A stretch of 64,000 nt of DNA from an uncultured Ignavibacteria bacterium (lineage in GTDB: Bacteria; Zixibacteria; MSB-5A5; JAABVY01): positions 308,626 to 372,625 of the forward strand of contig CAZVLB010000001.1 in NCBI GenBank assembly GCA_964627935.1, given 5' to 3'. Both the position numbers and the translations under genes were made by a program. This document shows positions 35,278 to 59,205 of this stretch, one piece after another (position 1 is the first letter of the stretch; the number at the start of each line of letters is the position of its first letter). Below the pieces are notes generated by a model. That model had not been told where the DNA came from and did not search any database. It worked only from the letters and a program-made list of their open reading frames with translations.

Positions 35278-35289
35278 GAGTTAATAGAA

Positions 35290-36845: not shown

Positions 36846-36847
36846 CG

Positions 36848-38458
36848 ATGTATTCACGAATTGAATCGAAGATCGACACATCCTCGGCGGACTTCAAAAA
36901 AAATCGGGAGGAAAACCTAAAACTCAGAGATGGGTTTTTAGAGAAACTGGAAGTCATCAAAAAGGGCGGACCGGATTACATGGTCGAGCGCCACAAGAAA
37001 CGTGGCAAGATGACCGCGCGTGAACGTCTGGCCGCTCTCTTCGACAAGAATACGCCGTTTCTGGAATTATCGCCCCTGGCGGCATATGACATGTACGAAA
37101 ATGAAGCCCCCTCGGCCGGGATGATCACCGGTATCGGTGTTGTCCGCGGCCGTGAGGTGCTGGTTATCGCCAATGATGCCACAGTCAAGGGCGGAACATA
37201 TTTTCCCATGACAATCAAGAAGCACGTGCGTGCCCAGCAGGTTGCCATGGAAAATCACCTGCCCTGTGTCTACCTGGTGGATTCCGGAGGAATCTTCCTG
37301 CCCCATCAAAGCGGGACATTCCCGGACCAGGGACATTTCGGACGGATTTTCTACAATCAGTCTGTCATGTCGGCCATGAGCATTCCACAGATTTCGGTGG
37401 TCATGGGTTCATGCACCGCCGGTGGTGCCTATGTGCCCGCTTTGTGCGATGAGACTGTCATTGTCAAGAAGCAGGGTACGATCTTTATCGGCGGCCCGCC
37501 TCTGGTGAAAGCCGCAACCGGTGAATCGGTAACCGATGAGGAATTGGGTGGCGCGGATGTACACTGCCGTATTTCAGGCGTGGCCGATCATTATGCGCAA
37601 AACGACCAGCATGCGATTGAAATCACACGTTCGGTTGTGGAATCGCTGGATCATCCGGCCAAATTCAAACTCAATCGTATCGAACCTGAGGATCCTTATT
37701 ATGATCCTGAGGAACTCTATGGCGTAGTGCCTGCCAACCTGCGCAAGCCCTATGATATTCGCGAAGCTATAGCACGAATTGTTGACGGCTCGAGATTCCA
37801 GGAATTCAAAGAATTATACGGCCAGACACTGGTGACCGGCTTCGCGCGAATTATGGGCTATCCGGTTGGCATAATCGGCAATAATGGTGTGCTTTTCTCG
37901 GAGAGTTCTGTCAAGGGAGCACATTTTATCGAGCTCTGCACCGAACGCCAGATTCCGCTTATCTTCCTGCAGAATATCAGCGGATTTATTGTCGGCAAGC
38001 AGTATGAGCATGGCGGCATTGCCAAAGACGGCGCCAAGATGGTGCATGCTGTGGCCAATGCCAAAGTGCCCAAGTTCACCGTTGTAATCGGTGGTTCATA
38101 CGGCGCCGGTAACTATGCCATGTGCGGACGTGGCTATTTCCCGCGTCTGATGTGGATGTGGCCGAATGCCAAGATCTGTGTCATGGGTGGTGAACAGGCT
38201 GCCGATGTGCTCTGGACCGTCAAGAAACGTCAGCTCGAGAAAAAGGGCGTGAAAATCACCGGGGATATGGAGCGGGAATTCAAGAAGCCGACACTGGAAC
38301 GCTACGAATTCGAATCGACGCCATATTATTCCGGGGCGAGGCTCTGGGATGACGGCATGATCGATCCGGTCGAGACGCGCAGGATGCTGGCGCTGGGTAT
38401 TTCCATGTCGCTCAATGCCGATGTGCCCAAGACCAAGTACGGTGTATTCAGGATGTAG
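36848..38458 (+). CDS. Acyl-CoA carboxylase carboxyltransferase subunit (methylcrotonyl-CoA carboxylase beta-like)
   Basis: Carboxyltransferase motifs ([22 protein letters not shown]; [11 protein letters not shown]; [13 protein letters not shown]); 536 aa as in MCC beta. Confidence 0.8.
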
Positions 38459-38475
38459 CCGGGAAGGATTATCCG

Positions 38476-39261
38476 ATGGCTGACTATGAAACCATTAAAT
38501 ACAATAAGGACGGCAATGTTGCACGGATAACGTTCTGCCGTCCCAAAATCCATAACGCCTTCAATTCGACTATGATCCGTGAGCTTTATGATCTCTTCAG
38601 CAAGATGAGAGATGATAATGACATCCGGGTTGTGGTCATAACCGGCGAGGGCAAGTCCTATTGCGCCGGGGCCGATTTGAACTGGATGCGCGATGTGGTC
38701 AGGTATTCCTATGAACAGAATCTCAAGGAATCGCTGGAACTGGCCATGCTCTTCCGCACAATCTATGAATTCCCGCGCCCGGTGATCGGGCGAATCAATG
38801 GTGCCGCTATCGGTGGCGGGACGGGATTCGTGGCTGTAACGGATATTGCAATTGCGGCCGAATCGGCAGTGTTTTCATTTTCGGAGGTCAAGATCGGCGT
38901 GGTGCCGGCCTGTATTTCGCCCTATGTGGTCAAACGCGTGGGCGAGGGCCGTGCCCGTGAATTCTTCCTGACCGGCGAACGGCTGACCGCGCAACGCGCA
39001 TTGGATTCGGGCCTGGTCAATCGTATGGTGCCGGATGATAAGCTGGATGACGAGGTAGAGGCCATGGTCAAACAGCTGTTATCTTCCGGGCCGGATGCCC
39101 TGGCTATGTGCAAGGAACTTTTGGCAACCATAGCCGACCAGAATATCGGCGAATTCGAAAAATATACCGCCGAGGTGATCGCGACATTGCGCAAATCAGA
39201 TGAGGGACAGGAGGGTATGGACGCTTTTCTGAACAAACGCAAACCGAATTGGGTGGAGTAG
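38476..39261 (+). CDS. Enoyl-CoA hydratase (crotonase family; probable methylglutaconyl-CoA hydratase)
   Basis: Crotonase fold motifs (VVVITGEGKSYCAGADL; GRINGAAIGGG); position between MCC subunits. Confidence 0.75.
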   Translation: MADYETIKYNKDGNVARITFCRPKIHNAFNSTMIRELYDLFSKMRDDNDIRVVVITGEGKSYCAGADLNWMRDVVRYSYEQNLKESLELAMLFRTIYEFPRPVIGRINGAAIGGGTGFVAVTDIAIAAESAVFSFSEVKIGVVPACISPYVVKRVGEGRAREFFLTGERLTAQRALDSGLVNRMVPDDKLDDEVEAMVKQLLSSGPDALAMCKELLATIADQNIGEFEKYTAEVIATLRKSDEGQEGMDAFLNKRKPNWVE

Positions 39262-39271
39262 ATAATCAAAC

Positions 39272-40774
39272 ATGTTTAAAAAAATACTGGTCGCCAACCG
39301 CGGAGAAATCGCCTGCCGGATCATCCAGGCGGCCTCTGAAATGAATATTCCCACGCTGGCGGTTTATTCTGAAGCGGATGAGAAAGCTCTGCATGTGCTC
39401 AGGGCCGACGAAGCCGCGCTCCTGGGACCGCCGTCGCCGCTTGAAAGCTACCTGAATATTGATCGCTTGATTGAAGTCGCGAAGGAATTTGGCTCCGATG
39501 CGATTCATCCCGGCTACGGTTTCCTGGCCGAAAATCATAATTTTGCCAGGCAGTGCGAAGATGAAGGGATTACCTTTATCGGCTCGCATTCGGAATCGAT
39601 TCGCGCAATGGGCAACAAGGTCGAGGCGCGTCAGATGATGATCAACTCCGGTGTGCCCGTGATACCGGGCATGGAGGGTTCAGCCGAGGATGTCGAGCTG
39701 TTCAAGAAAGAGGCCGAACGGGTTGGCTATCCGGTGCTTCTGAAAGCCGCCGCAGGTGGCGGTGGTAAAGGCATGCGGGTTGTCCATGATCCGGATAATA
39801 TCGAGGATGCCCTGCATGGCGCCATGCGCGAGGCCAAATCGGCTTTTGGCGATGATTCGGTCTATCTCGAAAAATATATTCAGGAACCGCGTCATATCGA
39901 GTTCCAGGTATTCGGCGATAAGCACGGAAACTATATTCATCTGTTCGAACGCGAGTGTTCGATCCAGCGCCGTCACCAGAAAATAATCGAGGAAACACCC
40001 TCGGTGGCGGTTGATGATCTGTTGCGTACCAAGATGGGTGAGGCGGCTGTGCAGGTTGCCCGCGCATGTGAGTATACCAATGCCGGTACGGTCGAATTTT
40101 TGCTGGATAAGGACAAGAATTTTTATTTCCTGGAAATGAACACGCGCATACAGGTTGAACACCCGATCACTGAAATGGTAGTCGGTGTGGACCTGGTCAA
40201 GGAACAGATTCGTGTCGCGTCGGGCGAACCATTGTCTATCGGGCAGGGTGATGTCGAGCAGCGCGGGCATGCAATCGAATGCAGGGTATATGCCGAGGAT
40301 GCCGAGAATAAATTCCTGCCGTCATCGGGCAAACTGCTCTTCCATCGTGAACCGCGCGGGCCATTTATCCGCGTCGATACGGGCGTCTATTCCGGGGTTG
40401 ATGTAACCGTTTACTATGATCCGATTCTATCCAAGCTGGTTGTCTGGGGTGAAAACAGGGCCGATGCGATCGAGCGAATGAAGAAGGCCCTGGATAATTA
40501 TATCGTGTTGGGAGTCAAGACATCCATCCATTATCTTAAAGCGATACTTGAACACAGGGAATTCATCGAGGGCCGCACCTACACTGATTTCATCGATACC
40601 AATATGAAAGATTGGGTCCCGCCGGAATTATCTGATGATAACAAAAAGATAGTTCTCCTGGCGGCCGCAGTGAACGAGATGAACAGGAAGCCGGAATACG
40701 CCGAGGGCGGTCCGCAGGAGATGCCATCGCCATGGCAAACCATTGGCAAATGGGAAATTGGGATGGGAGGTTAA
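39272..40774 (+). CDS. Biotin carboxylase subunit of acyl-CoA carboxylase (no fused BCCP)
   Basis: MFKKILVANRGEIACRIIQAA N-terminus, ATP-grasp motifs (GYPVLLKAAAGGGGKGMRVV; EMNTRIQVEHPITE). Confidence 0.9.
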   Translation: MFKKILVANRGEIACRIIQAASEMNIPTLAVYSEADEKALHVLRADEAALLGPPSPLESYLNIDRLIEVAKEFGSDAIHPGYGFLAENHNFARQCEDEGITFIGSHSESIRAMGNKVEARQMMINSGVPVIPGMEGSAEDVELFKKEAERVGYPVLLKAAAGGGGKGMRVVHDPDNIEDALHGAMREAKSAFGDDSVYLEKYIQEPRHIEFQVFGDKHGNYIHLFERECSIQRRHQKIIEETPSVAVDDLLRTKMGEAAVQVARACEYTNAGTVEFLLDKDKNFYFLEMNTRIQVEHPITEMVVGVDLVKEQIRVASGEPLSIGQGDVEQRGHAIECRVYAEDAENKFLPSSGKLLFHREPRGPFIRVDTGVYSGVDVTVYYDPILSKLVVWGENRADAIERMKKALDNYIVLGVKTSIHYLKAILEHREFIEGRTYTDFIDTNMKDWVPPELSDDNKKIVLLAAAVNEMNRKPEYAEGGPQEMPSPWQTIGKWEIGMGG

Positions 40775-40775
40775 A

Positions 40776-41285
40776 GTGGATTATGAACTTGTTTTAGATG
40801 GTCAGGAATACTTCGTTTCGATTTCCAAAGGCAAGAACGGCTATACAGCCAAAATCGGCGATGAGGAATTTTCGTTCGAGCAAATAGATTTTGAAACCGC
40901 CTGCTTAAAGTTAAATGTTAACGGTGTGCCCAAAACCGTATATGTGGCAGGTGAAAATGAAAAGTGCTACGTTCATGTCGACGGGCTCGTGCATACGCTC
41001 GAAATCCCCTCGGAGGAATCATCGGCAGGCGCCGGATCATCGGATTTAATTGTCGATGGCAAACAACTGGTGGTCGCGCCTATGCCGGGCAAGATTGTCG
41101 ATATTCCGGTCAAGGTCGGGCAGGCGGTCAAGGAAAAAGATATTCTCTGCGTGGTCGAGGCGATGAAGATGGAAAACGAAATCCGCTGCATGGTCAAGGG
41201 TGTGGTCAAGGAAATCGGCTACAAGGCCGGTGACCTGGTCGGCACCGAGGAAACGATCCTGATAGTCGAGGCGGCCGAGGAATAG
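40776..41285 (+). CDS. Biotin carboxyl carrier protein (biotinyl domain)
   Basis: Biotin attachment motif CVVEAMKMENEI; start set at GTG 40776 with SD GGGAGG 6 nt upstream (the ORF track begins at 40743). Confidence 0.8.
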   Translation: MDYELVLDGQEYFVSISKGKNGYTAKIGDEEFSFEQIDFETACLKLNVNGVPKTVYVAGENEKCYVHVDGLVHTLEIPSEESSAGAGSSDLIVDGKQLVVAPMPGKIVDIPVKVGQAVKEKDILCVVEAMKMENEIRCMVKGVVKEIGYKAGDLVGTEETILIVEAAEE

Positions 41286-41319
41286 ACTTTTTCTGCATAT
41301 GTGGCCCTTCAAAATTTTC

Positions 41320-41353
41320 AACCCACCGTTCCATGATGGTGGGTTTTGTTTTG
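41320..41353 (+). terminator. Rho-independent terminator after the BCCP gene (end of the acyl-CoA carboxylase operon)
   Basis: CCCACC-gttccatgat-GGTGGG followed by TTTTGTTTTG. Confidence 0.7.
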
Positions 41354-41731
41354 TACGTTATTATGGACCGCGTCAGTTCACCGTTCCGATAAATCGGGAC
41401 TAAGGAACTGATGCAACACCGGTAGCATTTGCATCGATGAATAGGGATCGGGATAAAGATAACCAAAATGTTGTAATTGCAGGCGCTGGGTGGCCGGCTC
41501 AAACTTTGTTTGGGCCGGATAGAAACGCAAAATATGCCTATATCATCCAAACCTCGACTTGAATACCATACCTCTTTAGTATACATAATCTTATTGCCCG
41601 AAATGATTTGCCCGCAGGCGTGATATTTATTATATTTGAGAATTGTTTCACAAGATAGAGGCCTTCCATCCGGGAGGGAATACCTGTAAATAGTAGTATT
41701 TATCAATAAATCTGGACTCACGGAGGAATAG

Positions 41732-42922
41732 ATGGATTATCCTGAAGCTTATATTGTTGCCGGATGCCGTTCCGCTATCGGTATTCTGCACAGTCATCTT
41801 TCCGCATTTTCAGCGCCACAGCTGGGCGCATTTGCTATCAAAGAAGTGGTAAAAAGAGCCGGTATCGATCCCGCCACAGTTGACGAGGTCATTATGGGCC
41901 AGGTGGTGCAGGGCGGATCGGGCCAGGCCCCGGGCCGTCAGGCCGCAATCCATGGCGGAGTACCGCCCGAGGTCCCGGCTGTGACAATCAACAAGGTCTG
42001 CGGATCAGGGCTAAAGGCCGTTATGATGGCCGCCTCGCAAATCAAAGCCGGCGATGGCCATTGTTTCATCTGCGGCGGTATGGAAAGCATGTCCAATGCC
42101 CCCAATATCCTGCCCGCCAAGGCCAAGCGCGGATTTAAGTTCGGCAATCAGCAGTTGATTGATATTATGATCACAGATGGCCTGTGGGACTCATTCAATA
42201 ACTTCCACATGGGCAATGCCGCCGAATATACTGCCGAAAAAGCCGGTATCACGCGTGAGATGCAGGATGAGTTTGCGCATAATTCTCATCAGAAAGCGCT
42301 CAAGGCCTGGGATGAGGGCAAATTCGACGCTGAAGTTTTCCCGATCGAGATTCCCCAGCGCAAGGGTGATCCGGTTGTGTTCAACAAAGATGAAAATCCG
42401 CGTGTGACCACACCGGAAAAGCTGGGCTTTCTCAAGCCGGCCTTTGTCAAAGAAGGAACGGTAACGGCAGGTAACGCCCCGGGTCTGAATGATGGCTCAG
42501 CGGCAGTGATAGTATGTTCGAAGGAATATATCGACAAGCATAACCTGACACCAATTTGCAAAATCACGGCCTATGATTCGGCCAGCCTCGACCCCAAAGA
42601 ACTTTTCTTTACACCGATTTATGCCGTGCGCAAGGTCATGAAGAAACTGGGTACCGATGATGTCAATTTCTTCGATCTGATCGAAGCCAATGAGGCCTTC
42701 AGCGCACAGGCCTTAGCCGATGGCAAAGAACTCGGCTGGGACTGGGATCGTGTCAATGTCCATGGCGGCGCGGTGGCGCTGGGTCATCCGATCGGAGCAT
42801 CGGGCGCACGTGTGCTGGTGACTCTGATGAATGCGCTCAAGGATCGCGGCAAGAAGACCGGTATCGCCACGCTCTGCCTTGGCGGCGGATCTGCGGTGGC
42901 CCTTTCAATCGAGATGGTATAA
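41732..42922 (+). CDS. Acetyl-CoA C-acetyltransferase (thiolase II, bacterial type)
   Basis: Thiolase motifs (INKVCGSGLKAVMMAA active Cys; NVHGGAVALGHPIGASGAR; CLGGGSAVAL). Confidence 0.9.
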   Translation: MDYPEAYIVAGCRSAIGILHSHLSAFSAPQLGAFAIKEVVKRAGIDPATVDEVIMGQVVQGGSGQAPGRQAAIHGGVPPEVPAVTINKVCGSGLKAVMMAASQIKAGDGHCFICGGMESMSNAPNILPAKAKRGFKFGNQQLIDIMITDGLWDSFNNFHMGNAAEYTAEKAGITREMQDEFAHNSHQKALKAWDEGKFDAEVFPIEIPQRKGDPVVFNKDENPRVTTPEKLGFLKPAFVKEGTVTAGNAPGLNDGSAAVIVCSKEYIDKHNLTPICKITAYDSASLDPKELFFTPIYAVRKVMKKLGTDDVNFFDLIEANEAFSAQALADGKELGWDWDRVNVHGGAVALGHPIGASGARVLVTLMNALKDRGKKTGIATLCLGGGSAVALSIEMV

Positions 42923-42946
42923 GACAACTTACGGGAGGTTTTCGAG

Positions 42947-43801
42947 TTGGATATAACAAAAGTAGTAGTATTTGGCGCGGGCACGATGGGTAATGGCATC
43001 GTGCATGTTTTCTCACAGAACGGATATGACGTTACCATGATAGATACGAAACAGGATTTTCTGGATCGCGGCCTTTCCATGATCAAGAAAAACATGGAGC
43101 GCCAGATTAAAAAAGAGATCATAACCGAAGATCAGATGAATGAATCCCTGGGACGAATCAAAACCTCGGTTTCACCCGAGGATGCTAGGGATGCCGACCT
43201 GGTGGTCGAAGCGATATTTGAAGATCTCGAAACGAAACTTGATCTGTTCAAAAAGCTGGATGCGATCACTCGTGATGAAATCATCCTGGCCTCGAACACG
43301 TCATCGCTGCCGATAACAAAACTGGCCAGCGCCACCAATCGTCCGGACAAAGTGATCGGAATGCACTTCATGAATCCGGTTCCGATGATGAAGCTGATCG
43401 AATTGATCCGCGGTATGGCTACCTCGGATGAAACATTCAATTTCATTTTCGAGCTTTCCAGGAAGCTGGGCAAAACGCCGGTCGAAGTCAACGACTACCC
43501 CGGATTTATTGCCAACAGGATCCTGATGCCGATGATCAATGAAGCCGCCTTTGCGCTTTTTGAGGGTGTGGGAACGGCAGAGGCGATTGACACTGTTATG
43601 AAACTGGGCATGGCCCATCCAATGGGACCGTTGACACTGGCCGATTTTATCGGGCTGGATGTCTGCCTGGCGATTCTGGAGGTGCTTCATGAGGGATTGG
43701 GCGATCCCAAGTATCGTCCCTGTCCGCTTCTGAAGAAGATGGTTGAAGCCGGATACCTTGGCCGCAAGAGTGGCCGGGGATTCTATGATTACTCCAAATA
43801 G
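42947..43801 (+). CDS. 3-hydroxyacyl-CoA (3-hydroxybutyryl-CoA) dehydrogenase
   Basis: NAD-binding [13 protein letters not shown] Rossmann motif; [13 protein letters not shown] and C-terminal dimerisation domain; probable TTG start with SD GGGAGG. Confidence 0.88.
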
Positions 43802-43814
43802 ATGAGGAGTTTAT

Positions 43815-44957
43815 ATGAATTTCGAACTTTCTGAAGATCATATAATGATGCGCGATTTCGGTCGCGAATTCGCGGTCAAACGCCTTGCTCCGATTGCCGA
43901 GGAAATGGACGCCAAGGGTGAGATGCCCGATGAGATCATGAAAGAGGCCGCGGAACTGGGTTTCTTCGGACTACTGTGTCCTGAACAATATGGCGGCCAG
44001 GATGTCGACACCCTGAGCTATGCCCTGATTATCGAGGAACTTTCCAGGGCCTGCGCCGGATTTGCGATTACGGTTTCGGTTCATAACTCGCTGGTAATTC
44101 CGGCTATTTTAAATTTTGGAAATGATGAGCTCAAACAGGAATGGCTTCCCAGGTTGGCCTCTGGTGAAATAATCGGCGCCTATTCATTATCGGAGCCCGG
44201 TTCCGGTACCGATGCCGGTAGCCTGAGTTGCCAGGCTCTGCCGCAGGGTGACGATTTCATCTTCAACGGTACCAAGAGCTGGGTAACCTCGGCCAAGTTC
44301 GCCGGTGTTTTTGTGGTATTTACCCTGACCAATCCCGAAGCCGGCCCCAAGGGTATATCAGCCATTATTGTGCCCGCCGGCCTTGATGGGATGTCACTGG
44401 GCGCACCGGAAAAGAAGATGGGCCTGAAATGTTCCGATACCCGTGAGCTGTCATTTATGGATGCCAGGGTTCCGCAGAAAAACCTCCTGGGCGAACAGGA
44501 TCATGGATTCAAGATCGCGCTTTCGCTTCTGGATAACGGCAGAATCGGAGTCGGTGCCCAGGCGCTGGGAATCGCCGAAGCGGCCTATAAAGAAGCCCTG
44601 GAATATTCCAAAGAACGCAAGCAGTTCGGCAGACCGATTTCAGCATTCCAGGCAATTCAGTTTAAGCTGGCCGACATGGCCACACAGATCGATGCCGCCA
44701 GGCTGATGGTGTATCGTGCCGCGGTTCTGAAAGATTCCGAGGGCCGTCACAGCCGCGAAATTTCCATGGCCAAGTTGTATGCATCAGAGATGGCCAATTA
44801 TGTCGTCGATGAGGCGGTGCAGATTCATGGCGGTTACGGCTATGTCAAGGAATATCCGGTGGAACGGTATTTCCGCGATGCCCGTGTGACAGAGATTTAT
44901 GAGGGCACATCGGAGGCCCAGAGAGTTGTAATTTCACGCGATATCCTGAAGGATTGA
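43815..44957 (+). CDS. Acyl-CoA dehydrogenase (short/branched-chain)
   Basis: ACAD motifs (LSEPGSGTDAGSL; QIHGGYGY; YEGTSEAQRVVISRDIL). Confidence 0.88.
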   Translation: MNFELSEDHIMMRDFGREFAVKRLAPIAEEMDAKGEMPDEIMKEAAELGFFGLLCPEQYGGQDVDTLSYALIIEELSRACAGFAITVSVHNSLVIPAILNFGNDELKQEWLPRLASGEIIGAYSLSEPGSGTDAGSLSCQALPQGDDFIFNGTKSWVTSAKFAGVFVVFTLTNPEAGPKGISAIIVPAGLDGMSLGAPEKKMGLKCSDTRELSFMDARVPQKNLLGEQDHGFKIALSLLDNGRIGVGAQALGIAEAAYKEALEYSKERKQFGRPISAFQAIQFKLADMATQIDAARLMVYRAAVLKDSEGRHSREISMAKLYASEMANYVVDEAVQIHGGYGYVKEYPVERYFRDARVTEIYEGTSEAQRVVISRDILKD

Positions 44958-46105
44958 TTATGGATCTGGATATTAAATACACAGACTTCAAAGCGCAGGT
45001 GCGCTCCTATGCCGAGGAGAAGATCGCACCCCATGCGGCCAAAATCGACAGTGAGCAGTTCTACTCCAAAGACGTTCATGAGGCGATAAACGACAAGGGC
45101 TGGTGGGGATGTCTTGTACCCAGAGATTATGGCGGACTAGACCTGAAGACAATAGAATACGCCATCATAGTGGAAGAGGTTGCCCGAGTCTGCGGTTCGA
45201 CCGCATTGACACTGGCGGCGCATAATTCCCTGGGTACCTGGCCGATCTGGAAATTCGGCAATGAGGAGCAGCGCAAAAAGTATCTTCCGCCCGCGGCCGA
45301 AAAAGGCAGTTTGATTGCATTCGGCCTGACCGAGCCGGAGGCCGGTTCCGATGCCGGTGGTACCAAGAGCAAGGCTGTTAAACAGGATGGCGGCTATCTG
45401 CTTAACGGCACAAAATGCTGGATAACCTCGGCCACAGTTTGCGATACCGCCATTGCCACGGCTCGTACCAGCGATGAGGGCGGCGTAAAGGGCATTTCAT
45501 CGTTTATTCTCGAAAAAGGCATGGAGGGTTTCACATCCGGCAAAAAGGAGAATAAGCTGGGATGCCGCGGTTCGGATACGGCCTATATGCATTTCGATGA
45601 TGTCAAGCTTCCAAAAGAACAGCTTATGGGCGAAGAGGGAAAGGGATTCAAGCAATTCATGATGACCCTTGACGGGGGACGCATATCAATTGGTGCAATG
45701 GCGCTTGGATTGGCACAGGCCGCATTGGATGTCGCCCTAAAGTATGCTTCCGAGCATGAATTCGACGGCAGGCCCATGGCAAAGGGACAGGGTGTGCAGT
45801 TTCAACTGGCTGATATGGGTATGCAGATCGAGGCGGCCAGGTTGATGATATATAAAACCGCCTGGATGAAGGATAATGACATTCCCTATACCAAGTATTC
45901 GGCCATGTGCAAGCTGTACGCTTCGGAGGTTGCCAATTTCTGCACCGGTACCGCCATGAAGCTGATGGGCGCCGACGGTATCAGTGAGAAATATCCGGCA
46001 GAACGCTATTATCGTGATATGAAATTATGTGAAATCGGCGAGGGTACCTCGGAGATTCAGCGCGTGGTCATAGCCCGTGAGCTGCTTTCCGGTCTCACAA
46101 AGTAA
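44954..46105 (+). CDS. Acyl-CoA dehydrogenase, second paralog
   Basis: ACAD motifs (LTEPEAGSDAGG; YEGTSEIQRVVIAREL style C-terminus); overlaps the previous ACAD by 4 nt. Confidence 0.88.
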   Translation: MIMDLDIKYTDFKAQVRSYAEEKIAPHAAKIDSEQFYSKDVHEAINDKGWWGCLVPRDYGGLDLKTIEYAIIVEEVARVCGSTALTLAAHNSLGTWPIWKFGNEEQRKKYLPPAAEKGSLIAFGLTEPEAGSDAGGTKSKAVKQDGGYLLNGTKCWITSATVCDTAIATARTSDEGGVKGISSFILEKGMEGFTSGKKENKLGCRGSDTAYMHFDDVKLPKEQLMGEEGKGFKQFMMTLDGGRISIGAMALGLAQAALDVALKYASEHEFDGRPMAKGQGVQFQLADMGMQIEAARLMIYKTAWMKDNDIPYTKYSAMCKLYASEVANFCTGTAMKLMGADGISEKYPAERYYRDMKLCEIGEGTSEIQRVVIARELLSGLTK

Positions 46106-46130
46106 ATCTTTACAGATTAGTTAAAAATAT

Positions 46131-46163
46131 AAAGGTCAGGCCGAAAAGCCTGACCTTTTTTCG
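46131..46163 (+). terminator. Rho-independent terminator after the second acyl-CoA dehydrogenase gene
   Basis: AGGTCAGGC-cgaaaa-GCCTGACCT followed by TTTTTT. Confidence 0.85.
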
Positions 46164-46376
46164 CGGCATCGGGATATATTTACAATAACAGGGGGCTGGG
46201 AAAAGCGGATATTAATCCGAATTCCTTACAGTATTTATCGGAGTTTTAGGAATGCTATGCAGTTGAAATTCTGAACAGTTAATTGGCTCAAAGATGCTGT
46301 TTAGAGTTGAAATAGGCGAGCATTATCAATATATTGTTGCAAAGATTTTTGATTAATTGCTGAAGGGAGATAGCGA

Positions 46377-47309
46377 ATGAATAAAGTGGATAAAATCTGG
46401 ATGAATGGCAAGCTGGTGGATTGGGATGATGCCAAAATTCATGTGCTGTCCCATGGTCTGCATTATGCTTCTTCGGTTTTCGAGGGTGCCCGCTGCTATG
46501 AGACCAAGAAGGGATCGGCAATATTCCGTCTGCAGGAACATACCGACCGGCTGTTCGAGTCGGCCAAGATTTGCCGCATGGAAATACCCTTCACCAGGGA
46601 AGAAATCAATAATGCCATTATCGAACTGATCCAAATTAACAAGCTCAAAAACTGCTATATCCGCCCAATAGTATATCGCGGCTATGAATCTCTCGGGGTT
46701 TATCCGGGTGACTGCCCGATAGATGTTTCCATCGCTGTATGGGAATGGGGTAAGTACCTGGGTGCCGATGCGCTCGAGAATGGTGTCGATGTCTGCGTTT
46801 CATCGTGGAACCGTCCCGCACCCAATACGCTTCCGGCCATGGCCAAGACCGCCGCCAACTACCTGGGTGGCCAGTTGATCAAGATGGAGGCGATTTCGCA
46901 TGGCTATGTGGAGGGAATCGGCCTGGATGTGGAAGGCTTCGTTTCAGAGGGATCGGGCGAGAATATATTCCTGGTCAGAAACGGGGTTTTGATAACACCG
47001 CCCTTCTGTGCATCGATCCTGGCAGGCATAACACGCCGCACTGTAATTCACCTGGCCGAGGAAATGGGAATTACGGTAAAAGAGGAGAATATACCGCGTG
47101 AGGCTCTGTATGTTTCCGATGAGGTTTTCTTTACAGGCTCGGCGGCGGAGATTACACCGATTGCAACAATTGACCGGATTCCGATCGGTCAGGGAAGAGG
47201 GCCGATCACCAAGAAGCTTCAGGATGCTTTCTTTAATGTCGTTGTCGGTGGCAACGATCCCTATGGCTGGCTGACATTTGTTTATAAAGAAGCCGGAGTG
47301 ACTGCCTGA
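46377..47309 (+). CDS. ilvE: Branched-chain amino acid aminotransferase
   Basis: Fold-type IV PLP enzyme motifs ([35 protein letters not shown]; [14 protein letters not shown]). Confidence 0.88.
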
Positions 47310-47743
47310 TGAAGATAGCGCTGGGCGCGGATCATAAGGGCTATCCGCTCAAGGAAAAGATCAAGGCGTATTTGATTGAACGCGGCGATGAGGTTGTCGA
47401 TTTCGGCACCGATTCGGAAGAATCCGTGGATTTTCCGGATTTTGGCCTGAAAGTCGCTCATGCAGTGGCTGATAGTCAGGTAGATTATGGTATCAATATC
47501 TGCTGGACAGGCAATGGCATGAATATGGCCGCCAACAAGGTTGACGGTATCCGATCGGGTCTGTGCCTTTCCGAAGAGATGGCGGAACTGACCCGTTCCC
47601 ATAATGACGCCAACGTTTTATCGCTGGCCTCGAAATATGTTCCAGAGGATGCAGGCTTGAAAATCGTGGAAAAGTTCCTGAGCACCTCTTTCGAGGGCGG
47701 CCGTCATGTACAGCGCCTGGAAAAGGTCATGGCGGAAGAGTAG
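47309..47743 (+). CDS. rpiB: Ribose-5-phosphate isomerase B
   Basis: [19 protein letters not shown]-terminus and CWTGNGMNMAANK motif typical of RpiB/LacAB family; start overlaps ilvE stop (TGATG). Confidence 0.85.
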   Translation: MKIALGADHKGYPLKEKIKAYLIERGDEVVDFGTDSEESVDFPDFGLKVAHAVADSQVDYGINICWTGNGMNMAANKVDGIRSGLCLSEEMAELTRSHNDANVLSLASKYVPEDAGLKIVEKFLSTSFEGGRHVQRLEKVMAEE

Positions 47744-47767
47744 AGAATATAGATTTGATCAAATCAT

Positions 47768-47796
47768 GCGGCGGATTTCGATCCGCCGTTTTTTTA
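47768..47796. terminator. Bidirectional terminator between rpiB and the convergent hypothetical gene
   Basis: CGGCGGAT-ttcg-ATCCGCCG followed by TTTTTTT. Confidence 0.8.
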
Positions 47797-48177
47797 TGCG
47801 CTCTGGCTGTATGATGCTGTTTGCGATGATCCGCGGAAAACATTTATCAGGCCGATGACATCATTGCGATCTTTGGAAACAATGAAGCCGGATGAAAGCA
47901 GCATAAAATTCTTGCGCCAGACGATTTTCAGGATCGGAATTCCCATCGACCACCGCCCGGCGTGCCAGGTGCTGATCTTGAACTCCTGCATCAGATTGAA
48001 AGGGATAAACATGGGCGTCTTTGTCAGGTAGCGGTGAAAATATATGCCTTTGTCATCAAACCAGAACTTGCCGTTACCGCGCGCGAACATCTTATCCTGC
48101 TTGTAGCGCTTCCACCAGATTTCATCAATCTCGGTACCGATATAGGCACCCTTATAGTGCTGTCCGGATTTCCACAT
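47794..48177 (-). CDS. Hypothetical protein (possible bacterial PH/GRAM-like domain)
   Basis: 127-aa ORF with protein-like composition, better than the overlapping plus-strand ORF 47962-48279; ends at the bidirectional terminator shared with rpiB. No motif recognised. Confidence 0.4.
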   Translation of the reverse strand: MWKSGQHYKGAYIGTEIDEIWWKRYKQDKMFARGNGKFWFDDKGIYFHRYLTKTPMFIPFNLMQEFKISTWHAGRWSMGIPILKIVWRKNFMLLSSGFIVSKDRNDVIGLINVFRGSSQTASYSQSA

Positions 48178-48262
48178 AAAGTTCTCCCGCCAGGATTTAT
48201 TTATTGTATCGGACAGATTCAGGATAAATTCGCAATGTTTGATGGAAAATTGAGGGACGTTA

Positions 48263-48664
48263 TTATTCGGTTACATTAATGATAAAACTGTAATAGGACT
48301 CATCGGCCTGATAAAAGTGCAGGAGATACTGACCCGCTTTTGCCGGACGCCAACCCAGCGCCTCGGAAATCGGTATTTCGGTTTCACTGCATCCCGGAGA
48401 AGTCTGGCGCACAAAAGGCGTGATAAAAATCTCCTTGCCATCCTGTCTGAGCTCAAAACGTGCGAATTGATAGCAGGGATAGCCGATCTGAAGCCGTGCC
48501 TTGAGCTGTGCCTGACGGCCGAGTTTGAGGTGCTGCGGATAATTGACAAAATTGGTGGCGGCCTTGATCAGTTCTCCGGCATCTTCGGGACCAGAGAGAT
48601 TATCATCCGATCCACAGGCAAGCAGAAACAAGGGCAGTAAAATCAGCAAAAGTATTCTTTTCAT
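48263..48664 (-). CDS. Small lipoprotein, paralog of 48706-49128
   Basis: Lipobox (LLACGS); conserved block GYPCYQFARF...EIFITP...PGC...YLLHFYQADESYYSFIINV shared with the neighbouring gene. Confidence 0.6.
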   Translation of the reverse strand: MKRILLLILLPLFLLACGSDDNLSGPEDAGELIKAATNFVNYPQHLKLGRQAQLKARLQIGYPCYQFARFELRQDGKEIFITPFVRQTSPGCSETEIPISEALGWRPAKAGQYLLHFYQADESYYSFIINVTE

Positions 48665-48705
48665 GATTTTGCTCCGGGGCTGTAGATTATATATGCTTGT
48701 AATTG

Positions 48706-49128
48706 CTAATTAATTTGAGAGCTGTCGACAACATTTATCTCAAAATTATAGAAAGTGCTGTCGGTCTGATAGAAATGTATCAGGTATTTGCCGGGATTTT
48801 CGGGCTCAAAAATAAATATCCGTTCCATACGGCTCTCGAAATAGTTACATCCACGAAATGATTGATAGGCCATGGGTGTGATGAATACCTCGCCGCCGTC
48901 AGATGTGCTTTTAAAATGTGAGAATTCATAACAGGGGAAACCGGCCTCGAGTATGGTTCGGAACCTGATTGACTGATTTATATCTGATGTGTCGGAATAG
49001 ATGACATTCCAGGTAGAGACCTCGGTCAGGATACGGTCATCGCCCTGGGAACCCGGTAAAATTTTTGTTTCCGATTCACAGCCTGTTAGGAGGACCGTGG
49101 CAATTAGTATTACAATAATCTTTTTCAT
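48706..49128 (-). CDS. Small lipoprotein, paralog of 48263-48664
   Basis: Start at the internal ATG giving MKKIIVILIATVLLTGCES lipobox; conserved block GFPCYEFSHF...EVFITP...RGC...YLIHFYQTDSTFYNFEINV. Confidence 0.6.
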   Translation of the reverse strand: MKKIIVILIATVLLTGCESETKILPGSQGDDRILTEVSTWNVIYSDTSDINQSIRFRTILEAGFPCYEFSHFKSTSDGGEVFITPMAYQSFRGCNYFESRMERIFIFEPENPGKYLIHFYQTDSTFYNFEINVVDSSQIN

Positions 49129-49296
49129 GATTTTGATCTCCGTTGATACACGAAATGGGAGCGGCCTACGCCTATCTCCATTATATAAACCACGCTGATA
49201 GAGAAACGTTTGTAAATTTATTATGAAAAATGGACGGTTGATTTGCAATTAAAATCTTCCGATAGTGTAAGGCTTTGTTGCGGATGAGGTTATATG

Positions 49297-50007
49297 CTAT
49301 TTGCGCTTTATGTGGATGATGTTTGCCGATCTGAATTGCATTGGTTCGCTGAACTCGAATCCCTCAAATCTGGCCTTGATTTCATCCAATGTCCATTTGC
49401 GCACATAGAAAAGATGCCGTTTGCCTTCCCTCCAGACAGATGAGATAACAAACACACCATCATCTTTCAGGCAGCGTTTGACATTCTCCATGCAGAACGT
49501 AAGCTTATCATCGTTAACTATATGTTCGAGGACCTCGATCATTATGATCAGGTCATAACTGCCATCGTGTTTTTGCGTGGTGAAGTCTTTTTTGATGAAT
49601 TCGTAATGGGGAAGGCGTTTTTCGTGTTTTTCAAAGAGGGTATCGGTTATATCGATACCGGTATAGTTTTTGACACCCATTCGATTTAAGATATCGGCAT
49701 AGAACCCGGTACCACAGCCGATATCCAGCACGCTTATATTCTGCATATCCAATCCCAGGGATTGAATATATTCGGAAAAGATCTTTTCATCGCGTTCGTA
49801 TTCGCGAATATTGTCCTGATCCGACTTGCCCTCATCGCCTGCGCCTTTAAGCGATTCGCCATAGCGGGAAAGACGGTCATCCCAGTAACGTGCGGCATCA
49901 TAATCATTGCCGCGACCATATTTTATGGGCCCGATTATGGTCTTGTAAATTACCCTTTTTATGAATCCGAGCGGGTCCTTTGTAAACCGTGACAAAATAT
50001 CCGACAT
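49297..50007 (-). CDS. Class I SAM-dependent methyltransferase
   Basis: SAM-binding motif I VLDIGCGTGFYADIL and downstream motifs of the Rossmann-fold MTase. Confidence 0.8.
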   Translation of the reverse strand: MSDILSRFTKDPLGFIKRVIYKTIIGPIKYGRGNDYDAARYWDDRLSRYGESLKGAGDEGKSDQDNIREYERDEKIFSEYIQSLGLDMQNISVLDIGCGTGFYADILNRMGVKNYTGIDITDTLFEKHEKRLPHYEFIKKDFTTQKHDGSYDLIIMIEVLEHIVNDDKLTFCMENVKRCLKDDGVFVISSVWREGKRHLFYVRKWTLDEIKARFEGFEFSEPMQFRSANIIHIKRK

Positions 50008-50022
50008 ATCCTTTAACAGAAT

Positions 50023-51549
50023 TTATGAGTTGATCTTGCCGATGACTTTTTCAACCGCTTCCAGTATTTCGCCCGATTTTACCACCTCACTGAGTTTATT
50101 AATGTCATTATAAAGCGGACGGTCCTCTTCGAGGAAATCGACATGCTTTCTGACTACCTCATAGGCGGCATTGGAGCCGGGGCTGAGCTTAAGCGGCTTT
50201 CTGAAATCGGCCGCCTGGGCCGCATTGAGAAATTCTATCGCCAGCACACCGTTGGCATTTTCTATAATATCACGTGACTTGATAGCCGAGGTCATACCCA
50301 TGGAGACGAAATCCTCCTGGTCGGCCGCGGCCGGAATCGATCCCGTAGCGGCCGGATGAGACAATATGCGATTTTCATTGACCAGTGCTCCGGCGGTGTA
50401 CTGCGCCAGCATCAATCCCGAAAACATTCCCGCGCCCTTGGTCAAAAATGCCGGCAGTCCGGAGGAGAGATGCGGGTTGGTCAGACGATTCACGCGTCTT
50501 TCCGACAGCACGCATAATGTCGTAATCGACATACCCAGAAATTCTGTTGCGAAAGCAATTGGTGAACCCTGGAAATTGGCGCCGGAGATGACCGTGTCAT
50601 CTTCCGGGAAGAAAATCGGGTTATCGGAAACGCCGTTTAATTCCGTCTCGATCAGCTTCCTGATAAATGCCATTGTATCTTTAGCTGTGCCGACTGCCTG
50701 CGGTGTGCTGCGCAGTGAATAGGCATCCTGCACTTTCTTGCCCTTTTGCGCCAGCATTTCGCTGTCTGCCGATATGCGGCGGATATTTTCTGCGCAGGTT
50801 ATGGCGCCCTTATGCCCGCGTACCCGATGCAGTCTGTCATCGTAGCCGGACATGTTTGCATTGAGCACCTCGAGCACCATGGCAGTGGCAATCTCATGCT
50901 GCCTGATCCATCTGTCGGCATCGTACCATTGCAGGCAGGACATGCCGGTGATGACATTGGAGCCGTTGATAGTCGCCAGGCCGTCACGGGCCTGATATGT
51001 GATCGTCTCGATACCGGCACGTTTCATTGCCTCGGCGCCGGGCAGACGTTCACCCTCGAAAAACGCTTCACCCTCGCCCATCGGCACGAGAGCCATCTGA
51101 CCCATGGGTGAAAGGTCTCCCGAGGCTCCCACCGAGCCTTTCTGGCACATTACCGGCGTAACGCCTTTGTTGATCATCTCCACCAGCGTTTCCACGACTT
51201 TCAGGCGCAGTGCGGAATGACCGTTGCAGTGCACATTGATGCGGCTCAGTATCGATGCGCGCGCATCCTCAATCGGAACCGGGTCGCCGATCCCGGCGGC
51301 ATGGCTGTAGATCAGGTAGCGCTGGAATTTCTCCACCTGTTCGGGTGTCAGCACAACCTCTGAAAGTTCGCCGATCCCGGTGTTGACGCCGTACATGATG
51401 GCGTTTTCCTTTAGCTTTTTCTCCACCAGTTCACGGCAGACCTTTATTCTTTCGATAGCTTCCTGCGATAACTCTATTTTTTCATTATGGCGGGCAATTT
51501 CAACCATTTTTTCGATTGACAGGTTATTCCCGTTGATGCTTATAGCCAT
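50023..51549 (-). CDS. hutH: Histidine ammonia-lyase (HAL/PAL family, MIO cofactor)
   Basis: MIO-forming Ala-Ser-Gly triad in GSVGASGDLSPMG; overall HAL-like length. Start set at the ATG preceded by GGAGG (MAISINGN...). Substrate could be His or an aromatic amino acid. Confidence 0.8.
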   Translation of the reverse strand: MAISINGNNLSIEKMVEIARHNEKIELSQEAIERIKVCRELVEKKLKENAIMYGVNTGIGELSEVVLTPEQVEKFQRYLIYSHAAGIGDPVPIEDARASILSRINVHCNGHSALRLKVVETLVEMINKGVTPVMCQKGSVGASGDLSPMGQMALVPMGEGEAFFEGERLPGAEAMKRAGIETITYQARDGLATINGSNVITGMSCLQWYDADRWIRQHEIATAMVLEVLNANMSGYDDRLHRVRGHKGAITCAENIRRISADSEMLAQKGKKVQDAYSLRSTPQAVGTAKDTMAFIRKLIETELNGVSDNPIFFPEDDTVISGANFQGSPIAFATEFLGMSITTLCVLSERRVNRLTNPHLSSGLPAFLTKGAGMFSGLMLAQYTAGALVNENRILSHPAATGSIPAAADQEDFVSMGMTSAIKSRDIIENANGVLAIEFLNAAQAADFRKPLKLSPGSNAAYEVVRKHVDFLEEDRPLYNDINKLSEVVKSGEILEAVEKVIGKINS

Positions 51550-51657
51550 CATTACCTCCGCAAAAATTGGCCAAAAAATATCAAGCTTGTAATTTACCAG
51601 ACCAGCCCGGAAAGTCAAGCGCAATCGCTATCGCTCTTGTTCAATTGATATTTCAGC

Positions 51658-51689
51658 AATAAAAAAGGCACCTGTATGAACAGATGCCT
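51658..51689 (-). terminator. Rho-independent terminator after the M1 peptidase gene 51714-53969
   Basis: Minus-strand hairpin AGGCAUCUG-uucaua-CAGGUGCCU (one G-U pair) followed by UUUUUUAUU. Confidence 0.6.
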
Positions 51690-51713
51690 AAAATTCCAGT
51701 GTTTGCATTATGA

Positions 51714-53969
51714 TCAGCAATCACAAGGCGCGGGGCCGTTTGCGAAAACCCAGTTAATCAGCCAGACTGCGTCGGAGACGTTTACATCGCCGTCGCAATT
51801 GACCTCGCCCGACTCTATCGGGTCAGGGGAGGGGCCGTTCAGGAAGACATAGTTGATAATCCAGACCGCGTCGGAAACATTAATCTCGCCGTCATTATTG
51901 GCATCGCCACAGGTATAGCCGTTATCCTCGGTTACCACTATTGTAAGCCAGATTGTGTCCGAACTGGGCGGATTGGATGAATCCTCGACACCCATCTTGA
52001 AGCTGAATTCCGAGGCCCAGGTGGGAACGCCGGAGAGAATCGGCGGATCACCATCAGTATATTCCAGGCCATAGGGGAATTGTCCGGTCAGATGTGTCCA
52101 GGTATAAGGTGGTACACCACCGATAGCATTGAATTCCTTTTCGAAATACTGCCCCAGATAGGCCGTATCGACCGGATTGGAGATTATCGCCATCCCGAAG
52201 GGCGCTTCTGTCTTGGTGCAAAGAACCCATTCTGTCGGATCGAATTTAATCGAATCAACCGGTTGCGGAACATCCAGCACAAAACTCTGCGTGCGTGTCG
52301 AATTAAATACCTTGTAGATCGAATCCTGGCCATTGTAGAAAACCTGTATATCTATCAGCATGGGGAAGACATTCCAGTTGAACTGAGGTCCAACCTGCGT
52401 CTGTTCGATATACAAGACCACTTTATCGCCATTGCCGTTATTGTAATTGGTCCAGCCATATTCATAGTGGGGATTACCATATTGATATACCCAGGCGTTA
52501 AAGAACCACTCCAGATCATCACCATATACCGCCTCGGCATGAGCGACGAAATCATCGGTAACGGCTGTACCGTAGCGAAGATCAGGATCGGACTGATAGT
52601 TGCGCAATATCTGGAACATGGCTGAATCTCCGACAATGGAACGCAACATATGCAGAACTCTGGAACCCTTATTGTAGGTTGATCCGCCATCGAATATATA
52701 GCCGGTGTCGAGATCATAAACATAAACCGGATCTTCATTCAGGCAGGACTGCGTATGAATATAATCATGATAAAACCCGGTGCCGAAGATCTCTTCGAAA
52801 TACAGCGCTTCCGAATACGTGGCAAAACCCTCATTGAGCCAGATATGATGAAAGCTTTCACAAGTGATCAGGTCGCCCCACCAGTGATGAGCCATTTCGT
52901 GGATAATGATCCATTCATTTACGATGTAATGTACCAGTGCTACCATGGTCTGGTTTTCCATGCCCCACAGATCATAAATCGTCTGGCCGTATTTCTCGTC
53001 GATGAAGGGATAGAGGCCGAATATATCCGAAAAAATCTGCAGTCCCGGAATCGTATAGGTCAGATAATTATTCACTGCCTGAGGGTAACCGTCATAGGCG
53101 TAGACCACCACCGGCATAGTGTCGCCGGGAGCATATTCCCAGGCCTGTTCATAAAGATTCTGGTTGGCGCAGGTAAAATGGATCAGGTAGATTGCCATCG
53201 GGTATGTGCTCTTCCAGTGTGTGGTGCTGGTCCCGTCGCCGTTGGAATTAATACTTTGCAGGAGACCATTGGCGCAGGCTGTCATGGACGATGGATGGGT
53301 CACACGCAGGTCGAGGCTGTCGATTTTATCATAGGGGAAATCTTTGCATGGAAACCAGTTTCGTGAACCGAACGGTTCGCATTCTGTCTGGCAGATGGAG
53401 CCGTTGTAAATCGCATCGAAACTCAATCCTCCGCCGGTGTTATTCTGGGGAGTTCCTATAAATGGCGGCGAGCCATGATACTGCACAGTTACCGCGAAAT
53501 CTTCGCCGATATTTGCAGGCTCATTAAGATAAACGGTAAACAGCACTCCGTTTTGCAGATAGCTTGCCGGCTGACCGTTGATACTGACATCGTCGATGGT
53601 AAGCGCGCTGGTGAAAGTCAGGTCAACGAGTGCAAGATTGTCCACATTGGATTTTGCATTAACTGTCGTAACACCGGAAATTGTCTGGCCGGAAAAATCC
53701 AGGGCGATATCGATATCATAATGGGTGACATCATACTGAAACATGTTGGATGTGGGGCTGCTCAGGCCATAGGGGCCGTCCAGCCTTTTTGTGTCATGCC
53801 CATGATTCTTGATAATCTCCGGGCCTAAGATTTTTCTGCTTTCCAGAATCCATTCTCTGATATCACCTTCATACGGCGGCAGTTGCGGAATCTCCCGGTC
53901 GTTTTCGGCCAGCAATACACCGCACAGGATAAGGCATACCAGTCCTGTCAGATAAAACAAGAGCTTCAT
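51714..53969 (-). CDS. Secreted M1-family zinc metallopeptidase with He_PIG-type Ig domain and C-terminal dockerin-like module
   Basis: Signal peptide; HEMAHHWWGDLITCESFHHIWLNEGFATY (HExxH-x18-E M1 signature); putative Ig motif GGVPPYTWTHLTGQFPYGL; C-terminal [23 protein letters not shown]...PCDC. SD GAGGAGG upstream. Confidence 0.82.
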   Translation of the reverse strand: MKLLFYLTGLVCLILCGVLLAENDREIPQLPPYEGDIREWILESRKILGPEIIKNHGHDTKRLDGPYGLSSPTSNMFQYDVTHYDIDIALDFSGQTISGVTTVNAKSNVDNLALVDLTFTSALTIDDVSINGQPASYLQNGVLFTVYLNEPANIGEDFAVTVQYHGSPPFIGTPQNNTGGGLSFDAIYNGSICQTECEPFGSRNWFPCKDFPYDKIDSLDLRVTHPSSMTACANGLLQSINSNGDGTSTTHWKSTYPMAIYLIHFTCANQNLYEQAWEYAPGDTMPVVVYAYDGYPQAVNNYLTYTIPGLQIFSDIFGLYPFIDEKYGQTIYDLWGMENQTMVALVHYIVNEWIIIHEMAHHWWGDLITCESFHHIWLNEGFATYSEALYFEEIFGTGFYHDYIHTQSCLNEDPVYVYDLDTGYIFDGGSTYNKGSRVLHMLRSIVGDSAMFQILRNYQSDPDLRYGTAVTDDFVAHAEAVYGDDLEWFFNAWVYQYGNPHYEYGWTNYNNGNGDKVVLYIEQTQVGPQFNWNVFPMLIDIQVFYNGQDSIYKVFNSTRTQSFVLDVPQPVDSIKFDPTEWVLCTKTEAPFGMAIISNPVDTAYLGQYFEKEFNAIGGVPPYTWTHLTGQFPYGLEYTDGDPPILSGVPTWASEFSFKMGVEDSSNPPSSDTIWLTIVVTEDNGYTCGDANNDGEINVSDAVWIINYVFLNGPSPDPIESGEVNCDGDVNVSDAVWLINWVFANGPAPCDC

Positions 53970-59202: not shown

Positions 59203-59205
59203 ATT

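Follow-up and report, generated by a model that had tools for sequence, protein, structure and literature searches.

We found that a string of 15 same-strand genes, about 13.5 kb long (positions 34231-47743), probably encodes the catabolism of leucine and of other branched-chain and short acyl-CoAs in an uncultured Ignavibacteria bacterium (GTDB lineage Bacteria; Zixibacteria; MSB-5A5; JAABVY01). The string lies in a stretch of 64,000 nucleotides that we call the window (assembly GCA_964627935.1, contig CAZVLB010000001.1, positions 308,626 to 372,625 of the forward strand). A previous sequence-only reading had flagged the interval 41732-51549 as a protein-fermenting neighbourhood, where thiolase II, 3-hydroxybutyryl-CoA dehydrogenase (Hbd), two acyl-CoA dehydrogenases (ACAD1 and ACAD2), the aminotransferase IlvE and an ammonia-lyase lie between two blocks of dockerin-tagged peptidases. 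Each of these genes was confirmed at its position by Pfam or NCBIfam profiles (Table 1). The interval begins mid-way in the string, and it also holds rpiB, a bPH-domain protein, two lipoprotein-like open reading frames (ORFs) and an S-adenosylmethionine (SAM) methyltransferase, which that reading had left out. Genes were called from a six-frame ORF listing of the window followed by Pfam and NCBIfam profile scans; the Pfam scan covered window ORFs of at least 150 aa, except for a few that overlap longer annotated genes as nested or antisense ORFs, and negative family results for the window refer to this set.

The reading of the whole string as leucine and branched-chain acyl-CoA catabolism follows from its carboxyltransferase, which sequence affinities place in the clade of methylcrotonyl-CoA carboxylase (MCC). 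Its scores are 726 bits to human MCCB and 719 to Pseudomonas MCC beta, compared with about 250 to propionyl-CoA carboxylase beta, and it is 62% identical to the carboxyltransferase of the liu cluster on the Cupriavidus pauculus plasmid NZ_CP033971.1, our comparator, which encodes 3-hydroxy-3-methylglutaryl-CoA (HMG-CoA) lyase, isovaleryl-CoA dehydrogenase (IVD), MCC beta and MCC alpha. These scores, and the fact that a biotin carboxylase (BC) is present, led us to reject propionyl-CoA carboxylase, methylmalonyl-CoA decarboxylase and glutaconyl-CoA decarboxylase as identities of this protein. The BC is 48% identical to residues 1-506 of Cupriavidus MCC alpha. Because the unit includes an ATP-grasp BC and a biotin carboxyl carrier protein (BCCP), the carboxylating, catabolic direction is favoured. 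The top NCBIfam matches of the enoyl-CoA hydratase (ECH) in the same unit are PRK07468 and gamma-carboxygeranoyl-CoA hydratase, both under their cut-offs, and it scores 134 bits to the AtuE-like structure 4zu2. It is of the crotonase fold and occupies the place in the operon expected of a LiuC, and the families it resembles most are glutaconyl-type hydratases; the operon context makes 3-methylglutaconyl-CoA its probable substrate. Like the liu clusters of Pseudomonas and Cupriavidus, the string associates MCC with ACADs and an enoyl-CoA hydratase. It differs from them in that MCC alpha is encoded by separate BC and BCCP genes, the operon is headed by an archaeal-type gene trio, the ACADs depart from canonical IVD, and no HMG-CoA lyase (LiuE) was found in the window.

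Table 1. Genes and predicted signals of the window, grouped by the order in which they are discussed
Feature	Position	Strand	Basis or remark
Archaeal-type HMG-CoA synthase (HMGCS), first gene of the string	34231-35277	+	TIGR00748 518 bits (cut-off 353); NF003274 526 bits (cut-off 244)
Archaeal-type (SCP-x-like) acetoacetyl-CoA thiolase	35290-36450	+	NF004720 545 bits, cut-off 420
DUF35/OB-fold scaffold protein	36450-36845	+	PF01796 61 bits, cut-off 27; same call in Logan gene table
MCC beta, carboxyltransferase	36848-38458	+	PDB search
Enoyl-CoA hydratase, probable 3-methylglutaconyl-CoA hydratase	38476-39261	+	ECH_1 211 bits
BC, split MCC alpha	39272-40774	+	Biotin_carb_N, CPSase_L_D2, Biotin_carb_C
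BCCP	40743-41285	+	Biotin_lipoyl 60 bits; AMKM biotinylation motif
Terminator-like hairpin after BCCP	41320-41345	+	11-bp stem, then T-run; ends first unit
Promoter-like site before thiolase II	41608-41636	+	
Thiolase II (acetyl-CoA C-acetyltransferase)	41732-42922	+	TIGR01930 438 bits, cut-off 241
Hbd	42947-43801	+	NF004474 450 bits, cut-off 408
ACAD1, short-chain/butyryl-CoA-dehydrogenase-like	43815-44957	+	All three ACAD domains
ACAD2, butyryl-CoA-dehydrogenase-like, Gly replacing Tyr before catalytic Glu	44954-46105	+	All three ACAD domains
Bidirectional terminator-like hairpin after ACAD2	46131-46158	both	Listed on -; TTTTTT follows on +
Promoter-like site before ilvE	46307-46335	+	10/12 matches
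ilvE, branched-chain amino-acid aminotransferase	46377-47309	+	TIGR01122 437 bits, cut-off 246
rpiB, ribose-5-phosphate isomerase B	47309-47743	+	TIGR01120 166 bits, cut-off 139
Terminator-like hairpin after rpiB	47768-47789		
bPH-domain protein	47794-48177	-	Pfam
Two small lipoprotein-like ORFs	48263-48664, 48706-49248	-	Lipobox-like N-termini; no function assigned
Class I SAM methyltransferase, directly downstream of histidine ammonia-lyase	49297-50007	-	Profile scans
Histidine ammonia-lyase (HAL)	50023-51549	-	hutH equivalog TIGR01225 543.7 bits, cut-off 539.15
Terminator-like hairpin between M1 peptidase genes and HAL	51666-51689	-	
Two M1 metallopeptidases, C-terminal dockerin	51714-53969, 54022-56607	-	Pfam
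C25 peptidase, dockerin	27027-29531	+	Pfam
493-aa dockerin protein, no assigned function	29729-31210	+	Pfam
C39-like peptidase, dockerin	31570-33222	+	Pfam

Judging from hairpins and promoter-like sites, the string is made of three terminator-bounded transcription units, the flagged interval holding the second and the third. rpiB translationally abuts ilvE, and we read the two as co-transcribed. The order of these genes is conserved. From the MCC beta gene (MCCB) through ECH, BC, BCCP, thiolase II (thl), hbd, ACAD1, ACAD2 and ilvE to rpiB, it recurs in three related loci (L090, L091 and L096) at 55-88% protein identity, persisting to about 55-60%. The same order from thl to rpiB is seen in L089, L092 and L097, whose contigs stop short of MCC, and from BC to rpiB in L164/L165, both from the Zixibacteria metagenome-assembled genome (MAG) GCA_011056555.1. 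Across the loci, ilvE lies 3' of ACAD2 in 12, and ACADs stand beside an MCC module in unrelated lineages too (L012, L016, L063 and L071).

This conservation bears on a possible explanation without any functional neighbourhood, in which independent housekeeping units (biosynthetic ilvE-rpiB, thl-hbd-ACAD in general beta-oxidation, HAL in the use of histidine) would lie together by descent, next to peptidases by chance in a dockerin-rich genome. The terminators bounding the units agree with it, as do the housekeeping genes 3' of rpiB in L090 (glyA, SAM hydrolase, deaminase, nrdR and tatC), the solitary HAL of Aminicenantes, and the peptidases, whose orthologues lose synteny beyond close relatives, dockerin proteins of other kinds being present in the flanks of five other loci. 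However, the order from MCC to ilvE is kept down to about 55-60% protein identity and the ACADs accompany MCC modules in the four unrelated loci, and we consider such an assembly by descent and chance to be improbable.

In the pathway of leucine and branched-chain acyl-CoA catabolism that we propose, IlvE would transaminate leucine (also isoleucine and valine) to the 2-oxoacid, from which an oxidative decarboxylase encoded outside the window would yield the acyl-CoA. ACAD2 and ACAD1 would dehydrogenate the acyl-CoA and pass the electrons to an electron-transfer flavoprotein (ETF) encoded elsewhere. MCC (the beta subunit, BC and BCCP) would carboxylate 3-methylcrotonyl-CoA, the hydratase would lead to HMG-CoA, and HMG-CoA and the C4/C5 3-oxoacyl-CoAs would end as acetyl-CoA, with thiolase II and Hbd serving the acetoacetyl-CoA, 2-methylacetoacetyl-CoA and butyryl-CoA branch. 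Several observations weigh against this pathway. Neither a branched-chain 2-oxoacid dehydrogenase or oxidoreductase, nor an ETF, an HMG-CoA lyase or an amino-acid transporter was found in the window, so the pathway is incomplete as seen. The hydratase falls under every NCBIfam equivalog cut-off, and the ACADs, both scoring best to butyryl-CoA or short-chain dehydrogenases, are only 35-38% identical to canonical IVD, neither of them being an orthologue. Because IlvE is reversible and its gene sits with rpiB here and next to housekeeping genes in relatives, we only infer its catabolic role, and it may be biosynthetic. Additionally, an order shared among related genomes can mirror common ancestry and not function.

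The two ACADs are paralogues, about 40% identical. ACAD1 scores about 380 bits to structures of short-chain acyl-CoA dehydrogenase and butyryl-CoA dehydrogenase (Bcd) and about 251 to human IVD, whereas ACAD2 scores 360 bits to the Clostridioides difficile Bcd 5OL2 and 221 to human IVD. Neither has a Glu at the LDxxR position, and their motifs are YEG and GEG instead of the GAG of a canonical LiuA-type IVD, whose catalytic Glu is displaced: ACAD1 shows EIYEGTSE at its C-terminal motif (20/20 orthologues), ACAD2 shows EIGEGTSE (24/24 orthologues, within L082-L108) and the canonical Cupriavidus IVD shows EIGAGTSE. In the human IVD structure described by Tiffany et al. in 1997, a Gly at the Tyr position reportedly makes room for the 3-methyl branch of the branched substrate. 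Since ACAD2 has Gly in place of Tyr as in IVD and keeps the standard catalytic Glu, it is a candidate non-canonical IVD, that is, a putative branched-chain (isovaleryl-CoA) dehydrogenase. The ACAD2-type motif EIGEGTSE is also present in ACADs beside the MCC modules of L012 and L063.

Their resemblance to Bcd raises the question of whether thiolase II, Hbd and the ACADs form a butyrate-type fermentation module, run reductively from acetyl-CoA to butyryl-CoA to dispose of reducing equivalents that stem from amino-acid fermentation. The best matches of the ACADs include the Bcd of A. fermentans and that of C. difficile in its Bcd-EtfAB complex, their top NCBIfam match is the Bcd-like acryloyl-CoA reductase AcrC, although under cut-off, and the butyryl-CoA route starts with thiolase II and Hbd. 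But bifurcating Bcd requires etfBA, which clostridial operons carry, and etfBA occurs neither in the window nor in any of 80 related ACAD loci. The thl-hbd-ACAD unit also has no crotonase, no phosphotransbutyrylase, butyrate kinase or CoA-transferase family was matched among the window ORFs scanned, and the synteny with an ATP-dependent MCC operon and ilvE fits oxidation. A reductive butyrate module therefore seems very unlikely to us. The clostridial bcs operon (crt-bcd-etfB-etfA-hbd, plus thlA) shares thiolase II, Hbd and Bcd-like ACADs with the window, but the window unit lacks crt and etfBA and stands in a catabolic context. The mmgABC genes of Bacillus subtilis encode a thiolase, a 3-hydroxybutyryl-CoA dehydrogenase and an acyl-CoA dehydrogenase: the enzyme order is that of 41732-46105, and the unit has neither crotonase nor etf. 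It differs in that the window has two paralogous ACADs and is linked to the MCC operon and ilvE, not to methylcitrate-cycle genes.

At the head of the MCC operon lie three genes for an archaeal-type HMGCS, an SCP-x-like acetoacetyl-CoA thiolase and a DUF35 protein. Against the complex subunit of M. thermolithotrophicus (PDB 6ESQ), the HMGCS reaches 441 bits; it conserves the E, C, H and N catalytic motifs, and the thiolase has the HDCF (HDxF) motif; the definitions of the HDxF motif and of the E-C-H-N motifs were taken from PMC12960953. With three adjacent genes, the canonical E-C-H-N tetrad and HDxF, the trio is, by its sequence features, a thiolase/HMGCS/DUF35 system. A Friedel-Crafts acylase (PhlA/MucA-like) was rejected as an identity, as the canonical motifs are kept and the score to 6ESQ is 441 bits versus 208 to PhlA. 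Three adjacent genes in the order HMGCS, thiolase, DUF35 are what the window has in common with the archaeal complex (Vogeli et al. 2018, cited as reference 14 of PMC12960953). Unlike the archaeal complex, the window trio is bacterial and shares an operon with MCC and the hydratase, and no mevalonate-pathway gene was found nearby. That the three proteins form a physical tripartite complex, and the direction in which they would catalyse, are predictions.

The coupling of this trio to MCC is widespread among bacteria. We collected the 80 genome loci most similar to the window HMGCS, all of them (80/80) with bacterial record titles and 0 archaeal; 55 had enough downstream sequence to be evaluated. 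In 34 of these 55 (within L002-L071), HMGCS-thiolase-DUF35 is directly followed by MCCB (at least 60% identity), ECH, BC and BCCP, and a carboxylase module, MCC-type or other, lies nearby in six further evaluable loci. Carriers of the seven-gene module include Zixibacteria, Aminicenantes, Acidobacteriota and Coatesbacteria. In the window and 161 loci, together about 2.1 Mb, a tblastn search with the Cupriavidus HMG-CoA lyase gave 0 matches at E<=1e-3; none of the loci yielded a lyase within 10 kb, and the HMGL-like Pfam family had no match among the window ORFs scanned. Signature patterns for HMG-CoA reductase and GHMP kinases gave no true match in the 2.1 Mb, the sole HMG-CoA reductase match falling inside a thiolase gene. 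Where the trio occurs without MCC, a Pfam scan of 101 neighbouring ORFs returned no mevalonate or lyase families, the recurrent ones being only unrelated families and AtuA. In some Zixibacteria (L021:9692-11518, L036:16718-18556 and L060:9966-11801), the trio has an AtuA-family gene (acyclic terpene utilisation; Pfam E=4e-151) downstream of it, which in L036 and L060 is directly upstream of MCC beta.

Such a coupling could also be explained by an anabolic route, in which HMG-CoA made from acetyl-CoA would be dehydrated, MCC would run backwards as a decarboxylase and an ACAD would act reductively to give isovaleryl-CoA as a precursor of iso-branched fatty acids or, through IlvE, of leucine, as an analogue of the myxobacterial Aib pathway. 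The archaeal complex is known in the synthetic direction, and the window HMGCS, with its similarity to 6ESQ and its canonical motifs, resembles it; the trio shares its operon with hydratase and carboxylase in those 34 of 55 loci, no HMG-CoA lyase was found nearby, and in Myxococcus an HMGCS gene lies in an operon with methylglutaconyl-CoA-processing genes. However, the ATP-grasp BC and BCCP are always present, while dedicated decarboxylases have no BC subunit; leucine should be ample for an organism with many secreted peptidases; and the myxobacterial route relies on AibA/B instead of a biotin enzyme. We give this synthetic direction little credence and keep to leucine catabolism.

Within leucine catabolism, we tentatively suggest, as a doubtful but real possibility, a lyase-free ending of the leucine/isovalerate route: the HMGCS complex would run in reverse, converting HMG-CoA and two CoA into three acetyl-CoA, with ACAD2 as the matching non-canonical IVD. 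Alternatively, a lyase or a reductase encoded elsewhere possibly takes the HMG-CoA. If the lyase-free route operates, it would conserve one thioester more than the route through HMG-CoA lyase; substrate-level phosphorylation could turn this into an additional ATP that offsets the ATP cost of MCC, a gain that would count for an anaerobic protein degrader short of energy. Cleavage of HMG-CoA by the complex would add a new version to a textbook pathway and would give a physiological role to most of the approximately 1,000 bacterial copies of the complex. To our knowledge, archaeal isoprenoid synthesis and two antibiotic pathways are so far the only roles by which the thiolase/HMGCS/DUF35 complex has been explained. 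We found no description of the trio-MCC coupling in full-text literature searches, and the main text of a 2026 survey of 1,030 bacterial trios mentions neither leucine nor a carboxylase (PMC12960953). The conserved coupling, with no HMG-CoA lyase nearby, is the lead worth following here.

As the sequence-only reading had proposed, dockerin-tagged peptidases stand on both sides of the flagged interval. Dockerin_1 is above cut-off on all five flanking proteins, each with an N-terminal signal-like hydrophobic stretch, so that they look secreted by their N-termini. The modules, with thrombospondin type 3 repeats in the upstream block, sit on C25, C39-like and M1 peptidases and not on glycoside hydrolases. 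Type I dockerins on secreted enzymes are shared with cellulosome-like display systems, but their partner, the cohesin (scaffoldin) family, had no match among the window ORFs scanned. Orthologues of the upstream peptidases were not found in other Zixibacteria loci, and the block of NTPase, two M1 peptidases, HAL, methyltransferase and bPH gene lies beside rpiB only in the closest relatives (L089 and L164/L165), the peptidase/HAL adjacency being absent in more distant Zixibacteria. Since unrelated dockerin-domain ORFs flank five other loci, dockerin proteins are common in the lineage and their adjacency unstable. In L089, the closest relative, a 771-aa LVIVD-repeat/beta-propeller dockerin protein (L089:6117-8432, - strand) is inserted between rpiB and the bPH gene, an insertion that shows dockerin genes turning over at this spot. 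We take the peptidases to be separate, lineage-local neighbours, predicted to be neither co-transcribed nor stably linked with the catabolic genes, although they are compatible with a protein-degrading lifestyle.

The ammonia-lyase begins a stretch on the opposite strand that is unrelated to the + strand cluster. Alignment to HAL structures locates the Ala-Ser-Gly of the methylidene-imidazolone (MIO) group in GASGD and a Ser-His pair, which we take to be the substrate-selectivity switch, in YSHAAG. Because it narrowly passes the hutH equivalog cut-off and has both the Ala-Ser-Gly MIO motif and the Ser-His switch, the enzyme is a true HAL; the family scores and the Ser-His switch led us to reject a tyrosine or phenylalanine ammonia-lyase or an aminomutase. 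Its 508-aa form is 100% identical to P0002, and its nearest named homologue, annotated as HAL in a Zixibacteria MAG, is 86% identical (86-87% in L089 and L164/L165). Like the Hut pathway, the window has a HutH-type HAL with the MIO and Ser-His motifs; unlike it, this HAL pairs with a SAM methyltransferase and is solitary, as hutU, hutI and hutG had no match among the window ORFs scanned. hutU and hutI were not seen in L164/L165 or L166 either, and Aminicenantes homologues (70% identity) also stand alone, without hutU or hutI. The HAL-SAM methyltransferase pair (49297-51549, - strand) is kept in all close relatives seen (L089 and L164/L165).

The finding that started this work had several parts, which fared differently. 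Its proposal of amino-acid and acyl-CoA catabolism stands, as the acyl-CoA genes continue the MCC/hydratase operon in a conserved order; its single neighbourhood with the peptidases does not, given the terminators and an adjacency restricted to close relatives, and a functional link between catabolic genes and peptidases holds only weakly and locally. Fermentation finds no support in the window: ETF, acetate or butyrate kinase and phosphotransacylase families were unmatched in the Pfam-scanned ORFs, tblastn with a Cupriavidus query found no IOR-type 2-oxoacid:ferredoxin oxidoreductase, and no amino-acid transporter was apparent among the ORFs scanned. A cell that respires or lives in syntrophy could use these genes equally well. 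That reading was right about the lack of etfAB in the window, where the EtfA PROSITE pattern is likewise absent from the six-frame translation; this pattern had no true match in the roughly 2.1 Mb of window and related loci. Nevertheless, the absence is uninformative, because the canonical Cupriavidus liu cluster has no etf genes either. Taken by itself, the flagged finding adds little: it is a further cluster for branched-chain amino acids, and genomes of uncultured sediment bacteria are already routinely read as encoding the degradation of proteins and peptides together with the oxidation of acyl-CoAs (e.g. PMC4411801). The value of revisiting it lies in the correction: a larger, leucine-centred unit (34231-47743), a local adjacency of peptidases and HAL, and an etfAB absence that carries no information.

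The nearest genomes to the window are an Ignavibacteria-labelled MAG (HMGCS 90% identical), JABAHP010000119 and many Zixibacteria MAGs, and an identical 8.5-kb contig is present in run SRR7048227. An Rfam scan of 33000-52000 at E<=0.1 gave zero matches for regulatory RNAs. The 447-bp gap at 41286-41731, between BCCP with its terminator and thiolase II, is without an Rfam match and without a convincing ORF; in L164/L165 the same gap holds a 94-aa ORF with a weak DnaJ-type zinc-finger match, for which the window has no convincing counterpart. Two adjacent paralogues of 753 and 770 aa with CBM9-like and DUF5916 domains lie at 12312-17032 (- strand). A MoxR-like AAA_5 ATPase followed by a VWA-domain protein lies at 20767-23375 (+ strand), and three ORFs at 23431-25885 are without a Pfam match. 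The bacterial character of the window is seen in its genes for a sigma-54 activator, SpoIIE and CheR. A signalling block at 57431-63469 (+ strand) encodes a GAF-SpoIIE phosphatase, an HATPase_c_2 anti-sigma-type kinase, a 684-aa HEAT-repeat protein, a CheY-like receiver and CheR.

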